From: Escherichia coli
Lineage (GTDB): Bacteria > Pseudomonadota > Gammaproteobacteria > Enterobacterales > Enterobacteriaceae
NCBI RefSeq assembly: GCF_009931435.1
Contig: NZ_CP043414.1
DNA length: 64,000 nt
Reading direction: 5' to 3' (one strand)
Of the stretch, positions 8,877 through 45,157 are shown one piece after another (the first letter of the stretch is position 1; each line of letters begins with the position of its first letter). The position numbers were made by a program, and so were the translations under genes. The notes beneath the pieces are model-generated. The model did no database searches and was not told the DNA's origin. It was given only the letters and a program-made list of their open reading frames with translations.

Positions 8877-9086
8877 TCAAATGTTTTTCTGACTATTATT
8901 GGGCCGATAAACAGATATTATTTGAGCGTTTTGGTTCATTACATAAGCAATATCTCCATCTTTCAGAATGACTTTCCCATCCTTTCCCGATACGGCAATA
9001 CTCCGCTGCTCAGGATGATAGCCAATGCTACGCCCGCAATGGATCTCTTCCCCACCATTTTGAGACATGACTTTTACAGTTAACAT
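8877..9086 (-). CDS. Hypothetical small protein
   Basis: 69-aa ORF in an AT-rich stretch; unrecognised. Confidence 0.3.
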   Translation of the reverse strand: MLTVKVMSQNGGEEIHCGRSIGYHPEQRSIAVSGKDGKVILKDGDIAYVMNQNAQIISVYRPNNSQKNI

Positions 9087-9173
9087 TTTTCTGCTCCTAT
9101 TTAGATGCCCTTTCCATCCGGGCCACTGTTCAAAGTAAATTTAGATTCAACAATATTCTGCTCTTACAGGCGA

Positions 9174-9356
9174 TCAGTTCTGCATACACTGCCGAACACC
9201 GTCGACAATTTCACAGACCTGAGAAGCTGTATCGAAAAGCTGGCGCGCCTTATCCAGGCTGACGCATCCCACCAGGAAAAAAGGCACCAGTATCGCTACC
9301 AGTGCCCATTTCGCCGCCGTTCGCGGCATTCTGTGTGTCCAGTGTTTTCGCTTCAT
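9174..9356 (-). CDS. Putative small lipoprotein (signal peptide plus LVGC lipobox); possible spanin-like or exclusion lipoprotein
   Basis: MKRKHWTHRMPRTAAKWALVAILVPFFLVGC...: hydrophobic N-terminus followed by Cys; located downstream of the endolysin. Confidence 0.35.
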   Translation of the reverse strand: MKRKHWTHRMPRTAAKWALVAILVPFFLVGCVSLDKARQLFDTASQVCEIVDGVRQCMQN

Positions 9357-9360
9357 CTCA

Positions 9361-9588
9361 CTATCCACCAATCAATCCGGATAAGCTCAATACTCGCCAG
9401 GCGGTGGAAATGAAAATGGCAACCAACATTGCTGAAAATGAAAGGCCAACAACCACACAGAGAATTCGCGCCAGTTTTATAATGCTATCTGACATATTTA
9501 CCCCTGCCCCACTTACGATTTCACAGCAATGAGCAATTTTGCCATCCCATACAGCATCGGAGACACAGCGATACCGACCGCCACCCAC
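9361..9588 (-). CDS. Putative small membrane protein (single TM)
   Basis: ORF with hydrophobic stretch ILCVVVGLSFSAMLVAIFISTAW; start unclear. A further overlapping small hydrophobic ORF is at 9513-9716. Confidence 0.25.
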   Translation of the reverse strand: MGGGRYRCVSDAVWDGKIAHCCEIVSGAGVNMSDSIIKLARILCVVVGLSFSAMLVAIFISTAWRVLSLSGLIGG

Positions 9589-9855
9589 TTAATGGCAAAA
9601 GCCACCGCTCTGCTGATGTCATCAGTTACAGGCGCTTTCAATTCAAGGCCGTTTTTCATAGTCAACCTCAACAGAATTAGTTTATACTTCCTCATGTTCT
9701 CCTTTGCCTTACCCAAGGCCAGAAACAGAAAACCCCGGACTGTTACCGCAGCCGGGGTTTTTGCTATCTGATGCTATGCCCCTTACTTTCGCTCATCGTA
9801 GCCCCAGAAAAGAGCCTGCATGAGTTGAGGGTGTTCAGCACTTCAGTGTCAGTTT

Positions 9856-10401
9856 TTAAACCACCACGCGCTCTTTCATCCAGCCATAGACAAACGACTC
9901 ATTGGCCTCGCGTTTCTCTGCCAGCTCCAGATAACGCTCGCCCTGCGTACAGTTCAGGGCTTTCACCAGTACCAGTTCACCATCCCTGCTGCGATTTTTC
10001 AGATATGCCCGTAATGCATTAAGAGTACGCGGCCCGATGCGTCCATCAGCATCCATATCCGGATAGAGTTTCCCGCGCAGGTTGAAAACGTTCAGCCAGC
10101 GCTGAAGCATTCTGGACGCCACAGTTGGCCCCATGTTCACGCCCGTATCGCACAACTCTGCGGCAATATCCGGAGACAGGTCCTCAACCTGGTCGAATCG
10201 TGGTCCGTACCAGTAGTCCGCCTCGAGTATTTCCAGCGCCTGCCCACGCGTCAGGTCACGCATATCGCCCTGATAACCGTGTGCACGGGCAACTTTTTCA
10301 GTGATGCCCCATTTAGTCGGACCACCTTTATCATCCGGGTGATTGACGTAACCGCCCTCTTTTCCCAGAATTTCGTCAAAAATTTCATCTTTCGACTTCA
10401 T
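9856..10401 (-). CDS. Endolysin, glycoside hydrolase family 108-type with C-terminal peptidoglycan-binding region
   Basis: Motif EGGYVNHPDDKGGPTKWGIT, typical of the GH108 lysozyme N-terminus; position after the holin-like genes. Confidence 0.75.
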   Translation of the reverse strand: MKSKDEIFDEILGKEGGYVNHPDDKGGPTKWGITEKVARAHGYQGDMRDLTRGQALEILEADYWYGPRFDQVEDLSPDIAAELCDTGVNMGPTVASRMLQRWLNVFNLRGKLYPDMDADGRIGPRTLNALRAYLKNRSRDGELVLVKALNCTQGERYLELAEKREANESFVYGWMKERVVV

Positions 10402-10402
10402 A

Positions 10403-10693
10403 TCAGCGCCTTCGTAATACAAGGATTTTTGATACGTTCCCGCGTGCTCGTATCACCAGCACGCAGAACACCAGGTTAATCAGGACGACCAGCCAGTTAC
10501 CGGGTGGAAAGCGACCACACAGATAACAAAGCGGCGCAAAGGCATAAAGCAGCATCAGCAGCCAGGCCAGCCACGACATCAGCGGTTTATGTCTCGACTC
10601 ACCACGACGATAAAAAAAGAGCGTCAGCACGATAACCGTGCTTAACACCACATTCAGTAATCCGGGAAGGTTACTTAACATTACCGCCTCCAC
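10403..10693 (-). CDS. Small polytopic membrane protein (holin/antiholin-like)
   Basis: 96 aa, mostly hydrophobic helices; immediately upstream of the endolysin. Confidence 0.4.
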   Translation of the reverse strand: MEAVMLSNLPGLLNVVLSTVIVLTLFFYRRGESRHKPLMSWLAWLLMLLYAFAPLCYLCGRFPPGNWLVVLINLVFCVLVIRARGNVSKILVLRRR

Positions 10694-11060
10694 CCCGCAG
10701 ACGGGAGAACAGCCCGGATACCAGCGATGCGATATCCTGCTGGTGGATGAATGAGAGAATCTTCACCGACACCACCGATACCAGTACCGCACAAAGCGCG
10801 TCGAGAGATGTGCTGTGGAGATTCAATTTTTCGACCAGCCAGGACGCAAGGACATCCGCCCCCAGCACGCCAACAATGAACGACACCAGAAAATGCGCCG
10901 CCACACGCCAGACAGAAATCACCTGTGGCATCGTGGCCACAAACAACGCCCCGGCAAACGCGCCAAACACAATCCCGAAATCCGTCCCGGTAAACAGCCC
11001 GAATACCGTCGCCCCGCCGAGCGCCACAGCAGTGCTGGAACCGGATAAGGGTTCAGACAT
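10671..11060 (-). CDS. Putative holin (multi-TM, Gly/Ala-rich helices)
   Basis: MSEPLSGSSTAVALGGATVFGLFTGTDFGIVFGAFAGALFVATMP...; first gene of the lysis cassette downstream of Q. Confidence 0.45.
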   Translation of the reverse strand: MSEPLSGSSTAVALGGATVFGLFTGTDFGIVFGAFAGALFVATMPQVISVWRVAAHFLVSFIVGVLGADVLASWLVEKLNLHSTSLDALCAVLVSVVSVKILSFIHQQDIASLVSGLFSRLRGGGGNVK

Positions 11061-11193
11061 ATTTATTCTCCTGTAAATAAAAAGGACCATCAGCGGCCCC
11101 GTAACTGACATTTTATTAACGTTTGAAGATATGGATATTTATCAGGGTTTACCGTTTTCTGAACCCTGGATATGTTAAGCATTCAGCCCGCCA

Positions 11194-11529
11194 GTGGTGG
11201 GACGCTGGCTCATCATAGAGAAAGAGGGATGGCTGATTACCTCTGATCAGGGAAATCACATGCAGTTTTTACATAAAAGAATGCATTTAAATGCAGGAGA
11301 TACGGTAGTGGTTGACTGCTCTCATCAGTGCAATATTTTGCTGATGACAGATACAAACTTTAATAACTACCGCAACGCAAGAAGCTTTCATCATCACGGT
11401 GGTGGCGGTTTTTTTCAGAGATTACCGGCCCACCTTCATGTACCGCATTCAGGTTACTGGAATATTACAATTGATTTAGGAGGCGGAAGTGCAGCTATTC
11501 GGCACTCCATTTCCGTCATCCCAGCATAG
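11194..11529 (+). CDS. Hypothetical protein on the opposite strand to phage late transcription (moron-like unit with its own terminator)
   Basis: ORF (probable start at the internal ATG giving MQFLHKRMHLNAGD...) followed by hairpins at 11557-11596 and a terminator at 11778-11815. Confidence 0.3.
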   Translation: MVGRWLIIEKEGWLITSDQGNHMQFLHKRMHLNAGDTVVVDCSHQCNILLMTDTNFNNYRNARSFHHHGGGGFFQRLPAHLHVPHSGYWNITIDLGGGSAAIRHSISVIPA

Positions 11530-11777
11530 CAACTCGCCTTTAGCCTGAGTAAATGCGTCCTCAAGGACGGCAACGAGTCGCAGTTGCGTGCCGTCCTTTA
11601 CACAGCGTGTGCAGGCAATACCTTCAGAACTTTCATTATGCCGAGCTCATACAATTTCACCATTTTGTTCAACTACAACGCTCATAATTTTCTTACACTT
11701 TTTTAATAAACCACACCAATAACAACCATCACCGATACCTTTTGTATGCTGTTATTTTGCATTACGGTGTAACGGCA

Positions 11778-11815
11778 AGAGCCCCCTCCCCGCCCTGAAA
11801 GGCTCTGTGTTTTTG
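11778..11815 (+). terminator. Rho-independent terminator (stem agagcc/ggctct followed by GTGTTTTT)
   Basis: Inverted repeat plus T-run, read directly. Confidence 0.45.
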
Positions 11816-11840
11816 ATGTGCGCCTGATGTGGCTCAGATA

Positions 11841-11864
11841 CAAAAAAGCTCGCAGTAGCGAGCT
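11841..11864 (-). terminator. Rho-independent terminator after the 92-aa minus-strand ORF (stem agctcgc/gcgagct plus T6)
   Basis: Inverted repeat followed by TTTTTT on the minus strand. Confidence 0.5.
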
Positions 11865-11887
11865 AACAGAAAATATGAAGCATGTTT

Positions 11888-12166
11888 TTATCCACGAAGT
11901 ATGACGTTGAATTCATCCATACCGACACGGCTGGCTATCTCGTTGTATTCCTCAACAAGAGCCAGCAATTCTGAATTAGCAGCCATGAACTCTTCAAAAA
12001 CCTTATGGATGGCATCACTGTTTAATAAAACAATGTTCTTTCCTGAAAGGCGATCAGGGGTAGAAAATATAACTGTCAAACGACTAAAGGCCCTGGCTCG
12101 TTCAGCATTAACATCCTCAATACGCTGCAACAAGCTGGAGCACCTGGAAATATCATCAATATTCAC
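11888..12166 (-). CDS. Hypothetical protein
   Basis: 92-aa ORF; unrecognised. Confidence 0.3.
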   Translation of the reverse strand: MNIDDISRCSSLLQRIEDVNAERARAFSRLTVIFSTPDRLSGKNIVLLNSDAIHKVFEEFMAANSELLALVEEYNEIASRVGMDEFNVILRG

Positions 12167-12684
12167 TCTACTCCTGCCATCTGGATGATAATCATTTCAC
12201 GGAGAGAAGCACTCAGAAGTACCACTGAAGTATAGCTGGTGACCAGCTACTTACACATCTATTGCCATCCTGCTGATGATAAGTCGACATTAGCCCTTCT
12301 GTCTATAAACGAAACAAAGGATAAGTTCAGGTTTTAAACACACTGCCAGGATAAAGTATTGTATACAGTATAGAAGAGCGTTATTGAATGACATAAAAAA
12401 CCAGACCTAATCCCTTATCCGGAAGATATATCAAATAAACGGGGAAAATGTATTAAGATGGCGTTCCTATTCTCTCCATCCCTGATGTCCACGTAACTCG
12501 TTATAGAATCAGAACGCCATCTGAATACACACAAAAAAGCTGGCTTCACACCCTCCAGATGTGTGAACGCAGTGCCCGACCACGTGCTTTCGCAACCAGC
12601 ACAAATCATTTTAAAGCATCGAAAAACGATCAGAATATATCAGAACTTCCTAGCATCCTGCTTGGCTTAGATATTAATCGAGGA

Positions 12685-13770
12685 TTAGCTCCTGTTCTTA
12701 TCTAATTGTGCATTTCGCAATTTATCGTTCAGCACCAATATTTCACCAACTGTTTGTTCAAAACGCCCGGACTCAAGTTCAACCCCAATCGTGCGACGCC
12801 CCAATCCCATTGCTGCTTTTATTGTTGCCCCCGATCCCATAAAAAAATCCGCAACCACATCCCCCGGACGACTGCTGGCAGAAATTATCTGACGCAACAT
12901 ATCCGCCGGTTTTTCGCAGGGATGCTTACCCGGATAATACTGCACGGGCTTATGCGTCCAGACGTCCGTATAAGGAACGGCGGCCGATACAGAAAAATAA
13001 CGCCGCAGAGATTTGTATTCCTCAAGCAGACTGGCATATTGCCGGTTCAGTTCACTGTATGTGCTGACCAGTTGCTGGTGTGGCGTTGCCAGCTCCCCAC
13101 GCTGGTGCTTTTCTTCTGCAACACACGCGAACAGCGCCTGCAGTTTTCTGTAATCAGCTTCGTTCGGTAACTGCCACTGACAGGTACCAAACCAGTGCGA
13201 CACCATGTTTTTCTTTCCGGTGGCTTCCGCTATCTGTTTGGACGTTATCCCCAGTGATTCACGCGCATCACGGAAGTAAGAAATCAGCGGGGCCATGACG
13301 TGTTGTTTAAGCTCGCGCTCCTTTGCCGCATAGCCATCATTTTTTGGCTGGTATGGCCCCTGATAATGTTCGGCAAACAGAATGCGCTCTGTTGCCGGGA
13401 AATACGCCCGCAGGCTTTCTTTGTTGCACCCGTTCCAGCGTCCGGATGGCTTCGCCCAGATAATGTGGTTCAGCACATTAAAGCGCTCACGCATCATGAT
13501 TTCGGTGTCAGATGCCAGGCGATGACCACAGAACAGGTAGAGACTTCCGGCAGGTTTCAGTACCCGCCAGAACTGAGCCAGACACTGATCCAGCCATTTC
13601 AGGTAATCATCGTCGCCCTTCCACTGGTTATCCCAGCCCTCGGGCTTCACTTTAAAGTATGGCGGGTCTGTGACTATCAGATCGACAGAGTTTTCCGGTA
13701 AGGTCTGGATAAATTCCAGGCAATCAGCGTTGATTAACTCACAACTGGATATTTTTACAGTATCAACCAT
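12685..13770 (-). CDS. Orphan DNA methyltransferase (N6-adenine/N4-cytosine type, beta class: motif IV DPPY before motif I FxGxG)
   Basis: LIVTDPPYF near the N-terminus and DFFMGSGAT near the C-terminus; no adjacent restriction endonuclease ORF. Confidence 0.8.
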   Translation of the reverse strand: MVDTVKISSCELINADCLEFIQTLPENSVDLIVTDPPYFKVKPEGWDNQWKGDDDYLKWLDQCLAQFWRVLKPAGSLYLFCGHRLASDTEIMMRERFNVLNHIIWAKPSGRWNGCNKESLRAYFPATERILFAEHYQGPYQPKNDGYAAKERELKQHVMAPLISYFRDARESLGITSKQIAEATGKKNMVSHWFGTCQWQLPNEADYRKLQALFACVAEEKHQRGELATPHQQLVSTYSELNRQYASLLEEYKSLRRYFSVSAAVPYTDVWTHKPVQYYPGKHPCEKPADMLRQIISASSRPGDVVADFFMGSGATIKAAMGLGRRTIGVELESGRFEQTVGEILVLNDKLRNAQLDKNRS

Positions 13771-13920
13771 AGATCAATAAGCACTTCTCTGATAGGCTCA
13801 TACCGCTTTTGCGCAAAGCAGATGGGCCTGAGGTTTGCTTGTGACCCTAACGCATGAGCAGATGGCTGGCAGGTGCCGCTAACACCCACCAGCCGCCCAT
13901 TACCACAAATGAAAAAACCT

Positions 13921-14118
13921 TCACTGCGGAAGGCGTCTGTAACAACCGAACTGATAATCTGCCAGACCCGCCATAACAAGCTGGGTCAGTATTAACTGAC
14001 AGCGTTCGCGTGAAAGGTAAGTATTCTGCGCAATTTCCCCAACTGTTGCCGGTTCAGTGACGCTTAATTCATTAAACACCACTCTGGCTGTTTCGGTCAT
14101 ATCCTGCTGTTTTAGCAT
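13921..14118 (-). CDS. Small protein with HTH/winged-helix-like segment
   Basis: 65 aa; TVGEIAQNTYLSRERCQLILTQLVMAGL resembles a DNA-binding recognition-helix region. Confidence 0.3.
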   Translation of the reverse strand: MLKQQDMTETARVVFNELSVTEPATVGEIAQNTYLSRERCQLILTQLVMAGLADYQFGCYRRLPQ

Positions 14119-14291
14119 GTCTTTTTCTCTTTATTGGTTAACGTGACATACCAATAACTCTTGTCGAAAAAGCCAGCAAGCTGAAAGACCGGTATTAATA
14201 ACCACCTGCACATTTTATGTACCGAACCATTTTTCTGGCATAAAAAACCTCTCAATGGCGGGCGGTAAAAATCTTTGTTACTCAAGAAATT

Positions 14292-15005
14292 TTAACGCAC
14301 TCTGACTGTATTAATTTCAAAATCATTAATATTTCCGCTATTAAATATAACGAATTTCTTACCCCCACTCCTGTATGATTTCGATAACACCAGACGATCA
14401 TCATAACGCGCAATAATGTAATACCATACATTCTCATAGTGGATCGCCTGATATTCCCTCTTAAACTGTGGTTTGTACCAACCGGCAATAAGAGAGAATG
14501 CCCAGAAATAAATCATAAACCCAGCCATCATGAACTCAATTCGGTGATGACGAATAAAAGACATTTCCGAAAAACATTTGACTGAAACAAGTCTTCTTCC
14601 AAACCTGACAAAAAGCGTGATTGTAAAGGCAGCAAGAATGCAGAAAATCAGTACATCTGGCTCAACATGCTGATGAATTACCGAAAACTCCAGAACAGGT
14701 GGAATAAAAAGCAGCAATATCGCGAGAAAAAGCCGGATAAAACTCAAATTTTGTATATTGCGCTTTTGTTTTATGCCCAAAAAGAAAACAATACCAACTC
14801 CCCATCCAATAAGGAATATAACGATAACTGTCACAGCATAAAACAAACTTCGTGCTACATCATCGACACCAGCCCCGACAACCCACCATGGAAAGCCATA
14901 GTAAAATGAAGTACCCCATCCATAGAAATAAGCGCTTCCCCATCCTAGACAGCCCATATAAGCAACAAAAAGTGAAGAGTTTCTGAGCAGAGCACTGTCA
15001 TCCAT
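14292..15005 (-). CDS. Uncharacterised polytopic inner-membrane protein (aromatic-rich, about 5-6 TM) in an AT-rich insert between Q-like gene and lysis cassette
   Basis: 237 aa with multiple hydrophobic helices (e.g. AVTVIVIFLIGWGVGIVFFLGI, LFLAILLLFIPPVL); AT-rich by inspection. Confidence 0.5.
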   Translation of the reverse strand: MDDSALLRNSSLFVAYMGCLGWGSAYFYGWGTSFYYGFPWWVVGAGVDDVARSLFYAVTVIVIFLIGWGVGIVFFLGIKQKRNIQNLSFIRLFLAILLLFIPPVLEFSVIHQHVEPDVLIFCILAAFTITLFVRFGRRLVSVKCFSEMSFIRHHRIEFMMAGFMIYFWAFSLIAGWYKPQFKREYQAIHYENVWYYIIARYDDRLVLSKSYRSGGKKFVIFNSGNINDFEINTVRVR

Positions 15006-15259
15006 AGTAACACCATTAACAACTCAAAAATATCAACACATATTACATAACAAATTGGATTCCATGCAGTCAAGGGGCGTCATTGATGGAGAAAGTATTG
15101 GCACAATCATCATCACGTTTAATGTCTATGCCATTTTTTTGGGGATAAAAAAACCCGCTCGGTCACGGGTTTTACTAGCTTTGCCATCACGTATAAAAAC
15201 GGCAAAATATCAGATTCACACGAAATATATGCCTTTTTATCTACTTTTGCAATACTTTG

Positions 15260-15931
15260 CTATGAAAATGCCGCCTTTTGTTTTGAACGTGTTCCCTCCA
15301 CCAACAATAAAGCTTCACCATCCAGCCGATGAAAAATGTGTTTCATTGCAACCCAGTGACCAGTAAATGTCTTGGACCAGTTTTTGGTTGTTACTCCCAC
15401 CAGTAACGCCAGTTCCTGGTATTCGTAACCTTCCCCACCAAAAAGCTCAGCTTTTACCGCCTGCGCCGCCAACCAGATCAACGTCTTCAGGCGCACCAGA
15501 GTTTTTCCTGCAATTTTTCTGGTACCGGATTGAGCATTAAATTCAGTCCACGCCCACTGCGTTATCGCGATCTGATGCTCCCAGCAAATGCTACCGCTGT
15601 AACACCACAGCAGCCAGGCTTTATGATGTTCTTCAAGAGACAGAACGGCGCGTCGCCATGATGATGTCGAAAACTCAACCGGACTGACCAGGGCAATTGA
15701 TGAACCTTTCGCCAGCGATTGCTTTCCCGGGATCGGTGGATTATCCAGCGTTACTATTTTTCCAGTGACCTTATCGCGGCACCGGATTTTTTTACGTCTG
15801 TAACGCCCTGTATTGAACATGGCATTCTCCTGCCAGGCTTCAAGCTGACCTTTTGTTGCTCCACTCAAATCAGCGGTGGCGATCGTGAGCTGCTCACGCA
15901 CAAACTGTAAATACTGGTTATTCATGCGCAC
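15260..15931 (-). CDS. Putative late-gene antiterminator (Q-like), assigned by position
   Basis: 223-aa ORF immediately downstream of rusA and upstream of the lysis region; sequence family not recognised with certainty. Confidence 0.4.
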   Translation of the reverse strand: MRMNNQYLQFVREQLTIATADLSGATKGQLEAWQENAMFNTGRYRRKKIRCRDKVTGKIVTLDNPPIPGKQSLAKGSSIALVSPVEFSTSSWRRAVLSLEEHHKAWLLWCYSGSICWEHQIAITQWAWTEFNAQSGTRKIAGKTLVRLKTLIWLAAQAVKAELFGGEGYEYQELALLVGVTTKNWSKTFTGHWVAMKHIFHRLDGEALLLVEGTRSKQKAAFS

Positions 15932-16281
15932 TCCAGTTCTGTGATTTTTATCCCCAGCCGACCACCGGGAATAACCTGACCGCGCATAATATTAACTTCA
16001 TCAAACTGCTCATCGTCGATAATCAGTCCCGCATGTGTCAGTGCATCCAGTGGTGCTTTCAGAATATTGTCCAGGTCACGACGGCGCTTATCCGGCGGCT
16101 CTGCAATAATTTTTATTGCCAGCCTTCCGGACAGATTTAATTTCAGTCGCTGCTGGCGAACAATAAGCGCCACATCCCGGCGATAACGCTCCCCTGCTTT
16201 TGATACAAAATATGTGCTGCCACGACGACGCCAGTAGGTATTCACCGTCGGCGGGTAAGGCAAAACAAATTCTATCCCCAT
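15922..16281 (-). CDS. rusA: Holliday-junction resolvase RusA
   Basis: 119 aa; PYPPTVNTYW...PPDKRRRDLDNILKAPLDALTHAGLIIDDEQ parallels recalled E. coli RusA (PWPPSNNRYY...[30 protein letters not shown]). Confidence 0.8.
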   Translation of the reverse strand: MGIEFVLPYPPTVNTYWRRRGSTYFVSKAGERYRRDVALIVRQQRLKLNLSGRLAIKIIAEPPDKRRRDLDNILKAPLDALTHAGLIIDDEQFDEVNIMRGQVIPGGRLGIKITELECA

Positions 16282-16293
16282 CAGTAACCTCTT

Positions 16294-17343
16294 TTATCCA
16301 AGCACGCCGGTTGCAAAGGCGTGATCAAGAAAACGAAAAATTAAATCAACCTGAGAACCATGCTTTTCTTCGAACGCCAACGGATCTGCATGAAGCTCGT
16401 TATGATGTTTACGACACAACGGTAACGTAAAAATATCGTGGGCCTTTGTTCCCATTCCACCCTGACCGTGACCAATCAGGTGATGGGGGTCGTCGGCTGG
16501 TTGACCACAACACGCACACGGCTGTGTCTTCACCCAGCGCGTATATTTCTCATTTACCCAACGGCGACGTTTAGGTCGCCTCATGAAAGATTCAGGAGAC
16601 TCCGGATCAACGGCAATGCTGACCACCGTCTTTTCCTGTGGCGGGATTTGTTGCTGGTGGACATGAGGCAACGGCGCAAGATTTTTTGTGCGCTGCTTCA
16701 GTATGCTGGTGGCGCTCTGCTCTCCCGGTACGATGTCACTTTCGCGATACACCGAGTGGATTTTTTCCGCACGTAATCCCAGAGAGCGACGTAATACTGC
16801 CTCCGGTAGCGCGTCCGCCACCTGATTGCAGACCGCCCACCAGGATAATTCAGCCAGCGATAATTCCCGCTCTTGTGTGCCATTCATTGCGTGACGTATG
16901 ACGTCAATCATCCAGGCAGCCAGATTCTGCTGAGCAAGTTGCTCCAGTGAATCAGATGTCTGCTCCCGCAGCTGGTTGTCGCAGTGCCAGCACAACACCA
17001 TCGCGCCAGTACCGTAACGATGTATGACGGTTTCGCTGTGATGATAATCGCCGTGTGGCCACTGGCAGGATTTCACGTGACGTAATAGCCAGTCAGACAG
17101 TGCGCCTGCACCACCTACAGCACGGATCACCCGCTCATCGCTGAAAAATGGCAGTAACGATTTGTCTTGCGCCAGCGGCTGGCGAACAGCGGGAACCTCT
17201 CCTGATGGCAGCGCCCGCATGTTTTTCGGTTCCGGCTCCACCAACACCCGGGTATTGTAAAATACCGGCATGGATTCACGGCCCGGATTAAGGACCACCA
17301 GCCCGAGTTCCGGTACCAGAACAGGTCGAAGTAATACCCGCAC
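16294..17343 (-). CDS. Prophage nin-region protein with C-terminal HNH-type motif (DUF968/YdfU-like)
   Basis: 349 aa; C-terminal CACCGQPADDPHHLIGHGQGG...CRKHHNELH (Cys/His HNH-like cluster); synteny with Qin-type ydfU recalled. Confidence 0.55.
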   Translation of the reverse strand: MRVLLRPVLVPELGLVVLNPGRESMPVFYNTRVLVEPEPKNMRALPSGEVPAVRQPLAQDKSLLPFFSDERVIRAVGGAGALSDWLLRHVKSCQWPHGDYHHSETVIHRYGTGAMVLCWHCDNQLREQTSDSLEQLAQQNLAAWMIDVIRHAMNGTQERELSLAELSWWAVCNQVADALPEAVLRRSLGLRAEKIHSVYRESDIVPGEQSATSILKQRTKNLAPLPHVHQQQIPPQEKTVVSIAVDPESPESFMRRPKRRRWVNEKYTRWVKTQPCACCGQPADDPHHLIGHGQGGMGTKAHDIFTLPLCRKHHNELHADPLAFEEKHGSQVDLIFRFLDHAFATGVLG

Positions 17344-17344
17344 G

Positions 17345-17623
17345 TTACCTCCAGATACGTTGCTGGTATGTGCGGGATGGACGCGGTGGACGTTCGGAAT
17401 AAGGGAGCCTGACAGAGATTATCCAGTGACGATAATCGAGGCTGAGGGCTTTCTTAACCTCGTATCCGCGCCTGCCGTAACACTGAATCAGCCATTCGGC
17501 CTGTTCTTCAGTGCATGGGGGATGCTGGTACCAGTCAGATTTGAATACATGAGAACGCCGCCCGTGCCTGCTGGCAAAAGCGGCTGAATTATCAGAATTG
17601 TGTAATTTGGTCTTGTGCGCCAT
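17345..17623 (-). CDS. Hypothetical small protein (rem-position ORF)
   Basis: ORF downstream of the doc terminator; start set at internal Met (MAHKTKL...). Confidence 0.3.
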   Translation of the reverse strand: MAHKTKLHNSDNSAAFASRHGRRSHVFKSDWYQHPPCTEEQAEWLIQCYGRRGYEVKKALSLDYRHWIISVRLPYSERPPRPSRTYQQRIWR

Positions 17624-17702
17624 CTGTTTTCTCTGCTGGCGCAGCAGGTGCCAGTTGTTCAGGCTGGCGTGCAGATTGTAAACCAGAATGCCCGGAAAAA
17701 AC

Positions 17703-17724
17703 AAAACCCGCCGAAGCGGGTTTT
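17703..17724 (-). terminator. Rho-independent terminator after doc (AAAACCCGCCGAAGCGGGTTTT)
   Basis: 5-bp GC stem with CGAA loop flanked by A- and T-runs; identical core repeated at 18548-18569. Confidence 0.6.
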
Positions 17725-17738
17725 CATTGGAAGCGCCT

Positions 17739-18233
17739 TTAGTTTTGCTGTTCTATTCTAAGCTTGATAGTTTCATACAAAACAATAGTTGCGCCTGTTT
17801 TACATAATTCCCGGCTGTCATACGCGCGAGACCAATAACACAACCAGTTCTCGAGATCTTCTCGAGTATAGGTTTTGCAGGCCAGTCCCTCTGCCATTTC
17901 CACGATTTCATCGCCTGGTGCTGTTAACTCATAGCCATTCAACAACAAGAAGACGTAACCAGCCATCATAGCTGTTCGTTTGTTCGCATTAGCAAACGGA
18001 TGATTCTGAATCAGACTTTCAATCAATACCGATGCCAGTACAAACATGTCATTAGTCTGTTCATACCATCGAACCATGCTGGGACGGGCCTGAGAAGAAC
18101 TTAAGTTATCTGGACTCAGAACACCAACGGGCTCATCTGGCGTCTGTAATTCAATTAGGGAACGATTGATTTCAACAAGATCATCAACCGTAAGGTAATG
18201 CACTCCTTCAACAATCTCAGCCATAGAGCACAA
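17739..18233 (-). CDS. doc: Doc/Fic-family toxin (death-on-curing-like)
   Basis: Motif HPFANANKRTA matches the Fic/Doc signature HxFx(D/N)(A/G)NKR. Confidence 0.8.
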   Translation of the reverse strand: MCSMAEIVEGVHYLTVDDLVEINRSLIELQTPDEPVGVLSPDNLSSSQARPSMVRWYEQTNDMFVLASVLIESLIQNHPFANANKRTAMMAGYVFLLLNGYELTAPGDEIVEMAEGLACKTYTREDLENWLCYWSRAYDSRELCKTGATIVLYETIKLRIEQQN

Positions 18234-18242
18234 TACCCATCA

Positions 18243-18470
18243 TTACACTTTTGAAAGTTCTTCCATGGCTTTCTCATAACGAGAAAAACCGAAATCAAAA
18301 GCATTTTTCACTTGTTCACGATGTGCGCAGTTTTCATCAATCGCTGGGCGAGGGACTGCCACAACGCTTTTATCGCGAGGCGGAATACTCAACCGCGTGT
18401 GTTTTTTGAGTGGGCAGCTCATACTAATGAGTCCTTTTGTTTTCCGATTATTGGCAAAGCCATGCACCAA
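18243..18470 (-). CDS. Putative antitoxin for Doc (not obviously Phd-like); start uncertain
   Basis: Small ORF immediately upstream of doc with a 9-nt gap; typical antitoxin-toxin gene order. Confidence 0.45.
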   Translation of the reverse strand: MVHGFANNRKTKGLISMSCPLKKHTRLSIPPRDKSVVAVPRPAIDENCAHREQVKNAFDFGFSRYEKAMEELSKV

Positions 18471-18547
18471 ATTTGATGCAAAATAGATCTGTTTGAGATC
18501 CTTAGGATAGTCTAATGGTAGCTAAAATTACAACCTCATAATGCGAC

Positions 18548-18569
18548 GAAAAACCCGCCGAAGCGGGTT
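18548..18569 (-). terminator. Rho-independent terminator after hok (same stem-loop as 17703-17724)
   Basis: AAAACCCGCCGAAGCGGGTT, followed by a T-run on the minus strand. Confidence 0.55.
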
Positions 18570-18637
18570 AAGTGCGGGTGCGTTGAGGATGCCTGACACA
18601 TCAGAGGTGGCGAGGGATTTCTCCCCCGCCAGGTCTC

Positions 18638-18793
18638 TTACTCCTCAGGTTCGTAAGCTGTGAAGACAGCGACCTCCGTCTGGCCGGTTCGGATTCGTAC
18701 CTCGCAGAGGTCTTTCCTCGTTACCAGTGCCGTCACAATGACGGTTAAACAGATGACGATCAGGGCGATTAACATCGCCTTTTGCTGCTTCAT
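18638..18793 (-). CDS. hok: Hok/Gef-family type I toxin (HokD/RelF-like, 51 aa)
   Basis: MKQQKAMLIALIVICLTVIVTALVTRKDLCEVRIRTGQTEVAVFTAYEPEE matches recalled HokD/RelF; the ORF track extends the frame upstream. The sok antisense RNA is expected around 18.8-18.95 kb but is not mapped. Confidence 0.85.
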   Translation of the reverse strand: MKQQKAMLIALIVICLTVIVTALVTRKDLCEVRIRTGQTEVAVFTAYEPEE

Positions 18794-19640
18794 AGCCTGC
18801 TTCTCCTTGCCTTTCGGCACGTAAGAGGCTAACCTAGATTTGCCGTTCATAGATTGAGCCTCAGATTAATGTTAAGCGTCTTGCAGGACGCGTAATGTTA
18901 ACTGGGGCTTTTCTATATCTGCCTTTGGTGTTCATGCCTGAGACAGATAGCCTCAAGCACCCGCAGCCATTGTACTTAACTCCCGTTACCTCGCCAATAT
19001 AAAATCAATCAGAAAGGCGATCCATAAGGACAATAGCAAGACAATAAATTGCCATTACCCGCAATAGCCAGCGCACATTTGAGGACCAGCACGACAACTT
19101 TCTGTATCGGACGTACACCAGTCCTGATAAATACAAGGCGGTCTCATCAGTGATGAAATGCAACTATTGAGTACAGTTTCTCTGATTTTTCTGTAAAACA
19201 TGGAACACAACAACTAAATATAACTAGCACTTCTTAAGATGTACAAATTCAGAGTTAAGATAACGTAAGCAGTTTTCTCAAAACTAAGTGTAAATTTTTA
19301 ATGAAGAGCAGTGCTATGCTCCTGATCATATATTCATTGTTTGGAACTGGAGGAATATTTAGGTTGCTGGAGTGGTTGATTGAATTTAAATCAACTAAGA
19401 CAAAAACCAACAATTAAAGATATGTGGTATATCAGAAAACAACTATCCGTATATTACTACAGAATTAAATACTAGCAACAAAGCTGTCTTTATTGATTTT
19501 TTATCTGATATCGAAATAAATAAACATAAAATAACCAACTAATTAAAACAGAGACTCGACAATGAGCCTCTATCTATTGTAACAGCACTTCCAAATTTAT
19601 TTTAGTAAGATAATAGCATGGGGCATACTAGCCCCATCTT

Positions 19641-37047: not shown

Positions 37048-37142
37048 GATTTTTGTGCCTGTGCGCAGGCTTTTTCGGTCTTTCTCTTGCAGCGATAAGT
37101 GCTTACAGTAATCTGTAGGAAAGTTAACTACGGATGTACATT

Positions 37143-37601
37143 ATGGAACTGACGACACGTACTTTACCTGCGCGGAAACATATTGCGCTGGTGGCACACG
37201 ATCACTGCAAACAAATGCTGATGAGCTGGGTGGAACGGCATCAACCGTTACTGGAACAACACGTACTGTATGCAACAGGCACTACCGGTAACTTAATTTC
37301 CCGCGCGACCGGCATGAACGTCAACGCGATGTTGAGTGGCCCAATGGGGGGGGACCAGCAGGTTGGCGCATTGATCTCAGAAGGTAAAATTGATGTATTG
37401 ATTTTCTTCTGGGACCCACTAAATGCCGTGCCGCACGATCCTGACGTGAAAGCCTTGCTGCGTCTGGCGACGGTATGGAACATTCCGGTTGCCACCAACG
37501 TGGCAACGGCAGACTTCATTATCCAGTCACCGCATTTCAACGACGCGGTCGATATTCTGATCCCCGATTATCAGCGTTATCTCGCGGACCGTCTGAAGTA
37601 A
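37143..37601 (+). CDS. mgsA: Methylglyoxal synthase
   Basis: [24 protein letters not shown]...; 152 aa. Confidence 0.95.
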
Positions 37602-40265: not shown

Positions 40266-42428
40266 ATGGCCTTTATGCTAAGTCCTTTGCTCAAACGCTA
40301 TACCTGGAACAGCGCCTGGCTGTATTACGCGCGTATTTTTATTGCGCTTTGTGGAACCACAGCGTTTCCGTGGTGGCTGGGTGATGTAAAACTGACGATT
40401 CCGCTGACGCTGGGGATGGTGGCAGCGGCGCTGACCGATCTCGATGACCGGCTGGCGGGACGTTTGCGTAACCTCATCATTACGCTGTTCTGCTTTTTTA
40501 TCGCCTCGGCCTCAGTAGAATTGCTGTTTCCCTGGCCCTGGCTATTTGCAATTGGTTTAACGCTCTCTACCAGCGGCTTCATTTTGCTCGGCGGTCTGGG
40601 TCAACGCTATGCAACAATTGCCTTCGGTGCGTTACTGATCGCCATTTACACTATGTTGGGGACGTCACTGTATGAGCACTGGTATCAGCAGCCGATGTAT
40701 CTGCTGGCCGGTGCCGTCTGGTACAACGTCCTGACACTTATTGGTCATCTGCTGTTCCCGGTCCGCCCGTTACAGGACAACCTGGCGCGTTGCTATGAAC
40801 AACTGGCGCGTTATCTTGAGCTCAAGTCGCGCATGTTTGATCCTGATATTGAAGATGAAAGCCAGGCACCGCTGTACGATTTGGCTCTCGCCAACGGTCA
40901 GCTGATGGCGACATTGAATCAGACGAAACTCTCGCTGCTGACCCGCTTACGTGGCGATCGTGGTCAACGGGGAACGCGTCGCACGCTGCATTATTACTTT
41001 GTCGCGCAGGATATTCACGAGCGTGCCAGTTCTTCTCATATTCAGTATCAAACATTGCGTGAACATTTTCGCCACAGCGACGTGCTGTTCCGTTTTCAGC
41101 GACTGATGTCGATGCAGGGCCAGGCGTGCCAGCAACTGTCACGTTGTATTTTGCTGCGTCAGCCTTATCAACATGATCCGCATTTTGAGCGCGCTTTTAC
41201 GCATATTGATGCTGCGCTGGAGCGGATGCGCGATAACGGCGCGCCTGCCGATTTACTCAAAACACTGGGATTTTTGCTGAACAATTTACGCGCTATTGAT
41301 GCCCAACTGGCAACAATTGAATCAGAACAGGCCCAGGCACTGCCCCATAATAATGACGAAAATGAGCTCGCTGATGACAGCCCGCACGGATTGAGTGATA
41401 TCTGGCTGCGTCTTAGCCGTCACTTCACACCGGAATCCGCCCTCTTCCGTCATGCGGTAAGAATGTCGCTGGTGTTGTGCTTCGGCTACGCCATCATTCA
41501 GATAACCGGAATGCATCACGGGTATTGGATATTGCTGACAAGTTTGTTTGTCTGCCAGCCAAACTATAACGCCACGCGCCACCGCCTGAAGTTAAGGATT
41601 ATTGGTACGCTGGTAGGTATCGCCATTGGCATTCCTGTGCTGTGGTTTGTGCCGTCACTGGAAGGGCAGCTGGTGCTGCTGGTTATTACCGGCGTGCTCT
41701 TTTTTGCCTTCCGTAACGTGCAATATGCCCATGCAACGATGTTCATCACACTTTTGGTGCTACTTTGTTTTAACTTGCTGGGTGAAGGTTTTGAAGTGGC
41801 GTTACCTCGCGTAATCGATACGCTGATTGGTTGTGCCATTGCGTGGGCGGCGGTGAGCTACATCTGGCCTGACTGGAAGTTTCGCAATCTGCCGCGCATG
41901 CTCGAACGTGCCACCGAGGCCAACTGTCGCTATCTCGATGCCATACTGGAGCAATACCATCAGGGGCGTGATAACCGTCTGGCGTATCGTATTGCCCGCC
42001 GCGATGCACACAACCGTGATGCTGAACTGGCGTCGGTGGTATCAAATATGTCCAGCGAGCCGAACGTTACCCCGCAAATTCGCGAGGCCGCGTTTCGGTT
42101 GCTGTGCCTTAACCATACGTTTACCAGCTATATCTCAGCCCTCGGTGCTCACCGGGAGCAGTTAACTAATCCTGAAATTCTGGCGTTTCTTGATGACGCA
42201 GTTTGCTATGTTGATGACGCGCTACATCATCAACCTGCTGATGAAGAACGCGTCAATCAGGCATTAGCTGACCTGAAACAGCGGATGCAGCAACTTGAAC
42301 CACGGGCAGACAGCAAAGAACCTCTGGTCGTACAACAAGTCGGGTTATTGATTGCATTACTGCCAGAGATTGGTCGTCTGCAACGCCAGATTACTCAAGT
42401 TCCGCAGGAAACTCCTGTTTCGGCGTAA
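40266..42428 (+). CDS. yccS: Inner membrane protein YccS (FUSC-like)
   Basis: 720-aa polytopic membrane protein; conserved position; start +/- a few codons. Confidence 0.9.
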   Translation: MAFMLSPLLKRYTWNSAWLYYARIFIALCGTTAFPWWLGDVKLTIPLTLGMVAAALTDLDDRLAGRLRNLIITLFCFFIASASVELLFPWPWLFAIGLTLSTSGFILLGGLGQRYATIAFGALLIAIYTMLGTSLYEHWYQQPMYLLAGAVWYNVLTLIGHLLFPVRPLQDNLARCYEQLARYLELKSRMFDPDIEDESQAPLYDLALANGQLMATLNQTKLSLLTRLRGDRGQRGTRRTLHYYFVAQDIHERASSSHIQYQTLREHFRHSDVLFRFQRLMSMQGQACQQLSRCILLRQPYQHDPHFERAFTHIDAALERMRDNGAPADLLKTLGFLLNNLRAIDAQLATIESEQAQALPHNNDENELADDSPHGLSDIWLRLSRHFTPESALFRHAVRMSLVLCFGYAIIQITGMHHGYWILLTSLFVCQPNYNATRHRLKLRIIGTLVGIAIGIPVLWFVPSLEGQLVLLVITGVLFFAFRNVQYAHATMFITLLVLLCFNLLGEGFEVALPRVIDTLIGCAIAWAAVSYIWPDWKFRNLPRMLERATEANCRYLDAILEQYHQGRDNRLAYRIARRDAHNRDAELASVVSNMSSEPNVTPQIREAAFRLLCLNHTFTSYISALGAHREQLTNPEILAFLDDAVCYVDDALHHQPADEERVNQALADLKQRMQQLEPRADSKEPLVVQQVGLLIALLPEIGRLQRQITQVPQETPVSA

Positions 42429-44104: not shown

Positions 44105-45157
44105 ATGAAAAAGACAGCTATCGCGATTGCAGTGGCACTGGCTGGTTTCGCTACCGTAGCGCAGGCCGCTCCGAAAGATAACACCTGGTACACTGGTGCT
44201 AAACTGGGCTGGTCCCAGTACCATGACACTGGTTTCATCAACAACAATGGTCCGACCCACGAAAACCAACTGGGTGCAGGTGCTTTTGGTGGTTACCAGG
44301 TTAACCCGTATGTTGGCTTTGAAATGGGTTACGACTGGTTAGGTCGTATGCCGTACAAAGGCGACAACATCAATGGCGCATATAAAGCTCAGGGCGTTCA
44401 ACTGACCGCCAAACTGGGTTACCCAATCACTGACGATCTGGACATCTACACTCGTCTGGGTGGTATGGTATGGCGTGCAGACACCAAGGCTAACGTACCT
44501 GGTGGCGCATCCTTTAAAGACCACGATACCGGTGTTTCTCCGGTCTTCGCTGGCGGTGTTGAGTACGCGATCACTCCTGAAATCGCTACCCGTCTGGAAT
44601 ACCAGTGGACCAACAACATCGGTGACGCACACACCATCGGTACTCGTCCGGACAACGGCCTGCTGAGCCTGGGTGTTTCCTACCGTTTCGGTCAGGGCGA
44701 AGCAGCTCCAGTAGTTGCTCCGGCACCAGCTCCGGCACCGGAAGTACAGACCAAGCACTTCACTCTGAAGTCTGACGTTCTGTTCAACTTCAACAAAGCA
44801 ACCCTGAAACCGGAAGGTCAGGCTGCTCTGGATCAGCTGTACAGCCAGCTGAGCAACCTGGATCCGAAAGATGGTTCCGTAGTTGTTCTGGGTTACACTG
44901 ACCGCATCGGTTCTGACGCTTACAACCAGGGTCTGTCCGAGCGTCGTGCTCAGTCCGTTGTTGATTACCTGATCTCTAAAGGTATCCCGGCAGACAAAAT
45001 CTCTGCACGTGGTATGGGTGAATCCAACCCGGTTACTGGCAACACCTGTGACAACGTGAAACAGCGTGCTGCGCTGATCGACTGCCTGGCTCCGGATCGT
45101 CGCGTAGAGATCGAAGTTAAAGGCATCAAAGACGTTGTAACTCAGCCGCAGGCTTAA
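44105..45157 (+). CDS. ompA: Outer membrane protein A (loop-variant allele)
   Basis: [21 protein letters not shown] signal peptide, beta-barrel, APAPAPAP hinge, OmpA-C domain; long 5' UTR upstream. Confidence 0.95.

Follow-up and report, generated by a model that had tools for sequence, protein, structure and literature searches.

Gene content of the interval between Q and the holin genes

We analyzed the interval between the late antiterminator gene Q and the holin genes of a prophage in a 64 000-nt stretch of Escherichia coli DNA (RefSeq assembly GCF_009931435.1, contig NZ_CP043414.1). This whole stretch is called the window, and positions refer to it unless another record is named. The interval contains genes for a polytopic membrane protein of 237 amino acids (aa), a winged-helix protein of 65 aa and a DNA methyltransferase of 361 aa, with a structured messenger RNA leader between the last two (Table 1). 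The region 12100-15300 matches chromosomal prophages of several E. coli strains, e.g. BCE049 and ETEC1706, at 100%, and the element that hosts the interval is a Qin-like lambdoid prophage of E. coli. In the RefSeq annotation of one identical prophage the minus-strand order begins with hokD/sok, a DUF968 gene, RusA and Q and continues with an 'STM1630 family protein', a hypothetical 65-aa protein, a 'DNA-methyltransferase' and a hypothetical 92-aa protein, followed by a DUF1883 gene in opposite orientation, a pair of holins and a GH108 endolysin; in our analysis the endolysin was recognized downstream along with both holins. A preliminary description of the locus, made from the letters alone, had presented the three genes as one block of cargo. 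Its open reading frames (ORFs) are present at 14292-15005, 13921-14118 and 12685-13770, all on the minus strand, and what it observed could be confirmed overall, while its interpretation found only partial support.

Table 1. Features of the interval and its boundaries in the order of minus-strand transcription (window positions)
Feature	Position	Strand	Basis or remark
Q antiterminator gene, upstream boundary	15260..15931	-	PF06323, E 3.9e-90; RefSeq 'bacteriophage antitermination protein Q'
PR'-like late promoter candidate, TTGCAA-17-TATATT	15224..15252	-	Inferred; 9/12 matches in consensus scan, position right after Q as in lambdoid phages
tR'-like intrinsic terminator, AAACCCG-6 nt-CGGGUUUUUUU	15147..15172	-	Read from the sequence: GC-rich hairpin, then U-run
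237-aa STM1630-family (PF27470) polytopic membrane protein, AT-rich moron, variable slot A	14292..15005	-	
65-aa winged-helix protein (phrog_331), usual upstream partner of the methyltransferase	13921..14118	-	
P0 hairpin over the winged-helix stop codon, then U6, weak and terminator-like	13918..13933	-	
Conserved structured leader of the methyltransferase mRNA, 148 nt, ends at AUG	13768..13915	-	
Leader, closing stem (UGGGC with GCCCA)	13895-13900 with 13822-13827	-	
Leader, hairpin P3	13864-13894	-	
Leader, Chi octamer GCTGGTGG in 5' arm of P3	13886..13893	-	Kept in most relatives
Leader, hairpin d:f	13853-13862 with 13834-13843	-	
Leader, hairpin i	13803-13821	-	
Leader, hairpin j:k	13796-13801 with 13777-13782	-	3' arm at -16 to -10 from AUG
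361-aa M.EcoGII-family beta-class N6-adenine DNA methyltransferase	12685..13770	-	
Divergent 3' tail of the methyltransferase gene	12685..12757	-	Phage-collection matches start at query 959 = window 12758
Rare ORF-less spacer, variable slot B	12167..12684	-	
92-aa ORF (phrog_2873, function unassigned)	11888..12166	-	Own terminator at 11847-11864
Two holin genes, downstream boundary of the interval	10403..11111	-	PF16931 and PF05449

The methyltransferase is a close relative of M.EcoGII

The methyltransferase matches PF01555 (E 1.5e-42), and in PHROGs and PADLOC it falls into phage type II methyltransferase families. The motif DPPY was found at residues 35-38 and FMGSG at residues 310-314, so that motif IV stands ahead of motif I as had been described, and comparison with RsrI, CcrM and MboIIA gave two separate matching stretches. 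When the enzyme was aligned with five relatives we observed no gap throughout the catalytic, dimer-interface and recognition regions, and the motifs and the target-recognition region are kept across the methyltransferases of phiP27, SfV, WGPS2 and 1720a-02. The catalytic motifs are present on alignment rather than degenerate, as expected for an intact beta-class enzyme. The preliminary description had also found no cognate endonuclease. We likewise recognized no nuclease in the neighboring ORFs with Pfam, PADLOC or PHROGs, the RefSeq annotation lists only hypothetical proteins there, and a type II restriction-modification system was rejected for this missing adjacent endonuclease.

Although the enzyme is an orphan, it is not an unfamiliar one. 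Its identity to M.EcoGII amounts to 85% (92% positives) across 345 of the 349 residues of M.EcoGII, central recognition domain included, with the reference taken from Table S1 of PMC11551740, a PDF read by machine, so that a few errors are possible. Judged by this similarity, the window enzyme is a close relative of a characterized non-specific adenine methyltransferase. According to Murray et al. 2018 (PMC5778455), M.EcoGII is a beta-class enzyme of 349 aa from a cryptic prophage of E. coli O104:H4 that methylates adenine in any context, is silent in its native lysogen and is deleterious when expressed constitutively. The same source places it in a family with very many members in E. coli prophages and names phage 1720a-02 as carrier of a very similar enzyme. 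M.EcoGII and M.EcoGI from the prophages of O104:H4 strain C227-11 resemble the window enzyme in the N-terminal DPPY, the central helical recognition domain and the C-terminal FxGxG; M.EcoGII is likewise an orphan in a lambdoid prophage and of the same family as the 1720a-02 enzyme. The window copy, known from its sequence, differs from M.EcoGII in its length of 361 aa, in its replaced tail and in the substitutions in its recognition region; by homology it would be expected to methylate any adenine. The DNA similarity to other phages ends at about position 12758, which marks a recombination junction.

A conserved structured leader precedes the methyltransferase gene

From nine phages we aligned the roughly 150 nt that separate the methyltransferase gene from the 65-aa gene. 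We observed invariant blocks (AATGGGCGGCTGG, CCAGCCAT, TCAC, GCCCA and AAAGC) that are retained even where the flanking proteins drop to about 48% and 61% identity. The leader of the window folds on its own at -61.3 kcal/mol (z -3.83). Its structure (Table 1) was derived by eye from the differences between clades, and for evaluation the proposed pairs were compared with slid partners. We aligned 41 non-redundant sequences with MAFFT without fitting them to the structure; here 83.7% of the cells are paired compared to 33-44% for the slid partners, two-sided changes occur in 54 cells compared to 7-22, and the covariation score was reached by none of 500 shuffles. An alignment of 70 sequences fitted to the covariance model, and therefore leaning towards it, gave 85.9% paired cells and two-sided changes in 25 pairs (8-12 for slid partners). 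The covarying helices are d:f, i and j:k; one pair of d:f is seen as CG, UA and AU and another as UA and CG, and many copies of hairpin i come close to a perfect palindrome. G-U pairs occur often, and the dominant GU state of one pair (51 of 68 sequences) fits the sense RNA strand only. With regard to a possible riboswitch, the model shows invariant nucleotides at a three-way junction and leaves room for two pairings that exclude each other; no ligand is implied, and the alternative pairings do not covary. The Chi octamer in P3 is gone from several copies, including those of Hafnia and of loci L222 and L116, and may thus be incidental.

A peptide-coding function of this stretch was considered as well, since a 74-aa ORF (13755-13979) crosses the leader in the window; the relatives carry one-nucleotide indels, which rule out coding. 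Also rejected was a relationship to the HK022 put antitermination RNA, as the covariance model, run over the whole HK022 genome with filters off, matched the late leader alone and gave only noise in the early regions. Rfam 15 returned nothing for the leader at E up to 1 in 9000-19000, and the matches to microRNA and CRISPR families in 13740-13960 are chance ones (E > 4). We found no RNA motif described upstream of this methyltransferase family in a literature search that lay outside most subscription journals and is accordingly weak evidence; nor did it yield an account of how phages control M.EcoGII, and neither the upstream winged-helix gene nor the leader is described in the accessible part of the published M.EcoGII work (PMC5778455). 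The leader is therefore a conserved and apparently undescribed structured RNA; it is the most conserved non-coding element of the locus and was overlooked in the preliminary description.

Next, we looked at the distribution of the leader. An exact-pattern scan of IMG/VR and phage loci gave 202 instances, all of them with a methyltransferase ATG about 130 nt downstream. Among contigs from one genome per species, 37 of 38 matches were real and came from about 20 genera of the Enterobacteriaceae, Erwiniaceae, Hafniaceae and Morganellaceae. The covariance model, built from the MAFFT alignment, further detected two copies that had not been used as seeds, one in N15 (44.7 bits, E ~3e-10) that ends exactly at the methyltransferase ATG, and one in the Aeromonas phage phiARM81ld (26 bits) that ends at the ATG of a Com-like ORF. 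In phiARM81ld (locus L092, 2329-2544) this ORF, annotated as 'Com-like translational regulator', overlaps the start of the methyltransferase gene, which parallels the com-mom arrangement of phage Mu. For N15 we noted that gene 52 has its annotated start at 41621, while protein match and leader end both indicate an ATG at 41387 (locus L089, 2361-2735; record 41247-41621); the annotated N15 methyltransferase is thus probably short of 78 N-terminal codons. In Enterobacter sp. Bisph1 (locus L215, 2703-2848) a leader copy is followed by a decayed methyltransferase gene without start codon, 55 nt past an icd-like gene. This locus appears to be what remains of a prophage at the icd attachment site.

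A winged-helix protein is the usual partner of the methyltransferase

The 65-aa protein belongs to phrog_331 (E 1e-37). It had been described as containing a segment like a helix-turn-helix, and AlphaFold confidently predicts a winged helix (pLDDT 93.3, the predicted local distance difference test score) with the topology H1-H2-H3 and a beta-hairpin wing (helices 9-16, 26-33 and 37-49; strands 53-56 and 59-62). The best fold matches are the winged helices of MarR, OhrR and IclR, all of them generic with E > 1e-3, and the RNA-binding winged helix of SelB is also among the matches. Membership in the TrmB family (PF01978) was rejected, as the score of 18 bits lies below the gathering cut-off of 25.6 and supports a generic winged-helix fold alone. 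The fold search likewise did not support a reader of N6-methyladenine similar to the DpnI-type domains. The N-terminus MLxQxDMT and helix 3 (RCQLILTQ) are nearly invariant while the remainder of the protein diverges to about 45% identity.

With regard to its association with the methyltransferase, we observed the winged-helix gene at a fixed distance of 153 nt in all 78 loci of close relatives in IMG/VR with upstream DNA. The pairing holds down to 48% identity of the winged-helix protein and 61% of the methyltransferase. The gene is present in 25 of 37 species-level methyltransferase loci. Two allele types of the winged-helix protein, about 50% identical to each other (with the cdtI, mEp460 and Stx2c phages among the records), both precede methyltransferases of about 85% identity and identical or near-identical leaders.

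A conserved late core is flanked by variable slots

In order to separate conserved from variable parts we compared the gene order with other phages and prophages. The full 3.2-kb block was found in 52 of 5426 complete E. coli genomes and some part of it in 2738, while the membrane gene occurs in 451 (8%). Within phage records the matches are confined to the winged-helix and methyltransferase genes: window 12758-14249 shows 80-91% DNA identity to phiP27, to many phages carrying the Shiga toxin (Stx) variants Stx2a, Stx2c or Stx2d, to SfV (orf47/orf48) and to 1720a-02. Among the 78 IMG/VR loci mentioned above, 9 contain the membrane gene and 69 do not. What stands between Q and the 65-aa gene differs in other phages: phiP27 has a GIY-YIG nuclease there, WGPS2 has two reversed ORFs, and in SfV the slot is empty. 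Q, winged helix, methyltransferase and holin form a bare backbone in SfV, in the cdtI phage and in phages of Citrobacter, Hafnia, Providencia and Morganella; this order recurs in six genera, and even the distant methyltransferase relatives of N15 and phiARM81ld directly precede the holin gene. From this recurrent order it follows that the winged-helix and methyltransferase genes are core late genes, with the real cargo slots on either side. The series of Q, winged helix (where present), leader, methyltransferase and holin accordingly reads as a conserved late-operon core and not as the cargo that had been proposed. The view of the Q-to-holin interval as a cargo hotspot was correct, with the variable content confined to the flanking slots, but the membrane gene is not part of a three-gene unit, being far more frequent than the block and also found apart from it, beside the iro locus.

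The Stx phages (phiP27 and those with Stx2a or Stx2c) illustrate this layout. They share the winged-helix gene, the leader and the methyltransferase between Q and the lysis genes, in most cases at 80-91%, but carry tRNA genes and stx after the methyltransferase. The corresponding slot of the window holds a 0.5-kb spacer, the 92-aa ORF and the DUF1883 gene, and no toxin or tRNA genes were found in it.

The membrane protein is a member of the STM1630 family

The membrane gene has a GC content of 0.36-0.41 compared to about 0.5 for the methyltransferase gene, in accordance with its description as AT-rich. AlphaFold, run with 28 sequences, gave a poor model (pLDDT 60.5) in which five long helices are followed by a beta domain of about 55 residues at the C-terminus; these helices, though predicted with low confidence, agree with the multi-transmembrane topology proposed earlier. 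From the positive-inside rule we infer that the N-terminus may lie inside the cell and the C-terminal domain in the periplasm. The protein had been called unrecognized. It belongs to a named family of unassigned function, known as phrog_1521 (E 1e-84), as PF27470 (a precomputed label on 104 of 104 homologue matches) and in RefSeq as 'STM1630 family protein'. All homologues are uncharacterized proteins of Enterobacterales. For remote homology, an exhaustive profile search of 1.84 billion representatives gave 75 matches, all within the family itself; Pfam gave nothing on ten distant members, a word-index search from a distant member returned only hypothetical proteins of Enterobacterales, and PADLOC assigned none of the membrane protein, the winged-helix protein and the 92-aa ORF to a defense system. 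The label 'TfpB' that accompanies PF27470 could not be traced: TfpB of Acinetobacter is an unrelated pilus motor ATPase, and a search for Moraxella tfpB was empty.

Over the full length the protein is 47-48% identical to three homologues (P0067-P0069), and the gene of P0069 adjoins a Sif/GDSL-lipase (SseJ-type) gene. Salmonella STM1630 also carries PF27470, shows 47-48% identity over its full length and adjoins sseJ; it is chromosomal, in contrast to the window copy, which is a moron in a prophage late region. STM1630 is induced in macrophages, and its deletion had no replication phenotype. Hypermotility was reported in one screen and may be indirect, for example through the resistance cassette's polar effects. 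Further copies of the family lie beside the salmochelin genes iroBCDEN, next to a tRNA-Arg and to remains of phages (iss and part of a lysis gene) in loci L006 (4001-4635) and L007 (4001-4714); these iro-locus copies occur without the winged-helix and methyltransferase genes, and the copy at the iro locus of strain ABU 83972 is a pseudogene. The Klebsiella branch of the family was observed in an accessory region at the prophage end together with SRAP, umuDC-like and retron reverse-transcriptase genes. On the grounds of sequence and distribution the membrane gene is an independent, inserted moron in the variable slot between tR' and the methyltransferase module. That its product serves as an envelope or exclusion function expressed in the lysogen is our guess.

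Late transcription signals and a model for the control of the module

A tR'-like terminator, a strong GC-rich hairpin with a U-run, lies directly downstream of Q and forms with the promoter-like site the classic arrangement of PR' and tR'; the region 15140-15220 folds into two hairpins at -22.4 kcal/mol (z -3.2). The hairpin P0 is kept with compensatory changes in other phages, also in loci without the winged-helix gene. We found no Shine-Dalgarno sequence ahead of the window methyltransferase. The minimum-energy fold of the window leader departs from the comparative model: AUGGG is joined to CUCAU, and GGUCA to the UGAUC that immediately precedes the AUG. Across 68 sequences, 95% of the cells permit both pairings. 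The comparative and the minimum-energy scheme exclude each other and are equally well conserved, which suggests, as a hypothesis, a translational switch.

Taken together, we consider it likely that the locus combines a late methyltransferase module with an independent membrane-protein moron. The putative module would consist of the winged-helix gene, P0, the leader and the M.EcoGII-family methyltransferase. Since it lies downstream of a candidate Q-dependent late promoter and terminator, it would be transcribed efficiently only after prophage induction, once Q-modified RNA polymerase passes the terminators. The methyltransferase could then modify the adenines of the replicating phage DNA with little or no sequence preference, as expected from the 85% identical enzyme, and packaged genomes may thereby resist many restriction systems in the next host. 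Such protection of phage DNA had been suggested before; it is right in outline and the likeliest role. In the lysogen the enzyme would be kept silent because such an enzyme harms the cell, and possible signs of this silence are the two terminator-like hairpins, the missing Shine-Dalgarno sequence and the leader pairing that covers bases before the AUG. The leader may gate translation of the methyltransferase, possibly with the help of the winged-helix protein. In this scheme the OFF state would correspond to AUGGG:CUCAU and GGUCA:UGAUC before the AUG and the ON state to the d:f hairpin and the closing stem; the switch might be set by the winged-helix protein as RNA binder, by the kinetics of Q-modified transcription or by the methyltransferase itself. 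M.EcoGII methylates RNA too. We put forward only tentatively, as an idea with the odds somewhat against it, that the leader represents an undescribed family of cis-regulatory RNAs which gates a toxic, promiscuous methyltransferase by a two-state fold and has a diverged relative in lambda and P22.

Several observations weigh against this picture. About 16 of 78 positions in the recognition region differ from M.EcoGII, so that some sequence preference is possible, and the C-terminal 17 residues are replaced, with the protein alignment diverging past residue 344. The PR'-like promoter call is a weak consensus match and no better than chance across the region. The alternative leader pairings change on one side only, which is compatible with conserved sequence and leaves them unproven. 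Enterobacterales show no variation in helix 1 or at the base of P3, support for both comes solely from N15 and Aeromonas in the model-fitted alignment, and the identity of the leader (66-82%) lies only slightly above that of the methyltransferase DNA (61-78%). The winged-helix gene is missing from 12 of the 37 species-level loci and is therefore not essential to leader or methyltransferase.

Alternative explanations

The preliminary description had proposed to look for a target motif in the methylome of the lysogen. Some orphan methyltransferases, e.g. Dam and CcrM, act epigenetically at a defined motif, and this precedent, the intact beta-class enzyme and a recognition region about 20% different from that of M.EcoGII would also suit a sequence-specific orphan that is expressed in the lysogen and protects the host or acts epigenetically. 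We regard this as quite unlikely: the closest characterized relative is non-specific and silent in lysogens, the homologues in Shiga toxin-producing E. coli are listed as non-specific and yielded no motif by single-molecule real-time sequencing of lysogens, and a strong tR'-like terminator and one more hairpin precede the gene, which lacks a Shine-Dalgarno sequence. Probably no motif is to be expected, and a lysogen methylome would probably be uninformative because M.EcoGII lacks a target motif and stays silent in lysogens; the informative sample would instead be DNA of induced phage particles. A still smaller chance is left to the idea that the three genes make up one system, for example for defense or exclusion with a membrane effector, a regulator and the methyltransferase. 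Their adjacent and co-oriented arrangement and a block that is identical in 52 genomes would fit, but the membrane gene is absent from most IMG/VR loci that have the other two genes, occurs without them at the iro locus and next to the Salmonella gene sseJ, differs in GC content and is passed over by PADLOC.

The conservation of the leader could in principle also reflect a function of the 148 nt as DNA, be it as a promoter whose operator binds the winged-helix protein, as a Chi-containing recombination signal or as a conserved linker that favors mosaic recombination. Sequence-specific recognition is indicated by the long invariant blocks and by a helix 1 and a P3 base that do not vary, many copies of hairpin i are near-palindromic, Chi is present in most copies, and the recognition helix of the winged-helix protein hardly varies. 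We nevertheless judge a DNA-level function improbable, as d:f, i and j:k covary, the dominant GU pair fits sense RNA only, the leader persists where the winged-helix gene is missing, and Chi is lost in the copies named above. More weight, though short of an even chance, is given to the winged-helix protein as the main controller of the methyltransferase, comparable to the C proteins of restriction-modification systems or to Com of Mu, with the leader as its target. This would explain the fixed gap, a pairing kept at low identity of both proteins and the constraint on the N-terminus and helix 3, and it is in line with the Com-like ORF at the equivalent place in the Aeromonas relative and with SelB among the fold matches. 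It agrees less well with the third of the species-level loci that do without the gene, with two dissimilar allele types ahead of identical leaders and with fold matches that are all generic. The reading of a late methyltransferase module beside an independent moron is compatible with a helper role of this protein.

Members of the M.EcoGII family have been characterized and are commercially sold, and M.EcoGII itself is toxic and a widely used tool for chromatin and RNA footprinting. The genes of the interval are a new copy of known kinds, and the leader with its winged-helix partner is the part worth following. It is found, usually with this partner, from E. coli to Morganella and N15 and offers a testable handle on the control of M.EcoGII-type enzymes.

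Relation to the lambda late leader and to phage Mu

The covariance model gave a weak match in lambda (21.6 bits at 45010-45152; locus L254, 1211-1353) just upstream of S, and a single match in HK022 (17.3 bits at 37091-37210; locus L253) between Q and the holin gene. The late leader of lambda, HK022 and P22 has the same position at the head of the late operon and contains GUGAAA..GGG, a hairpin, UUUGCCCGUG..GGUCACGAACAAA and CUAUCAG in matching order. In lambda, however, the first hairpin is followed by a U-run and so looks like a terminator, and the leader precedes a holin gene instead of a methyltransferase gene. Conservation of the lambda-type stretch extends to 188 phage records, P22 among them. 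Tandem terminators in the lambda late leader were reportedly described in the 1980s, and to our knowledge no function has been assigned to the stretch upstream of S in lambda or HK022. The methyltransferase leader may thus be related to this unexplained conserved stretch; homology of the two is plausible, with low scores. If the leader is the gating RNA family proposed above, its diverged relative at the head of the late operons of lambda and P22 would be a general, overlooked late-leader element.

The arrangement also recalls com-mom of phage Mu. Mom is a toxic, loosely specific DNA adenine modifier that is expressed late from behind a small regulatory ORF and controlled via mRNA structure near its start. 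In both cases a small ORF lies ahead of an adenine-modifying enzyme, and the Aeromonas relative even has the annotated Com-like ORF. In contrast, Mom is no methyltransferase, and Com is a zinc finger while the protein of the window is a winged helix and missing from a third of the loci. There is no sequence relationship to the window genes, and the comparison is one of analogy.

Further observations on the variable slot and the prophage

The spacer downstream of the methyltransferase gene was found in 50 of the 5426 complete E. coli genomes; the rare segment comprises this spacer and the last 24 methyltransferase codons (12167-12760). It contains an inverted repeat of 25 nt (12449-12529) and two sites resembling promoters (12276-12305 and 12367-12394), and 12167-12684 gave no Rfam match, no tRNA and no match in the phage collection. 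It had been described as an ORF-free, hairpin-rich spacer (12170-12680). It is free of annotated ORFs, but its RNA folding is no better than chance (z -0.42; 35 of 100 shuffles fold as well). The 92-aa ORF that follows has promoter-like sites upstream and a clean terminator, a layout typical of morons. Elsewhere in the same prophage, a full-length sok antitoxin RNA (Rfam RF01794, 105 bits) was observed at 18788-18962 on the minus strand, adjoining hokD.

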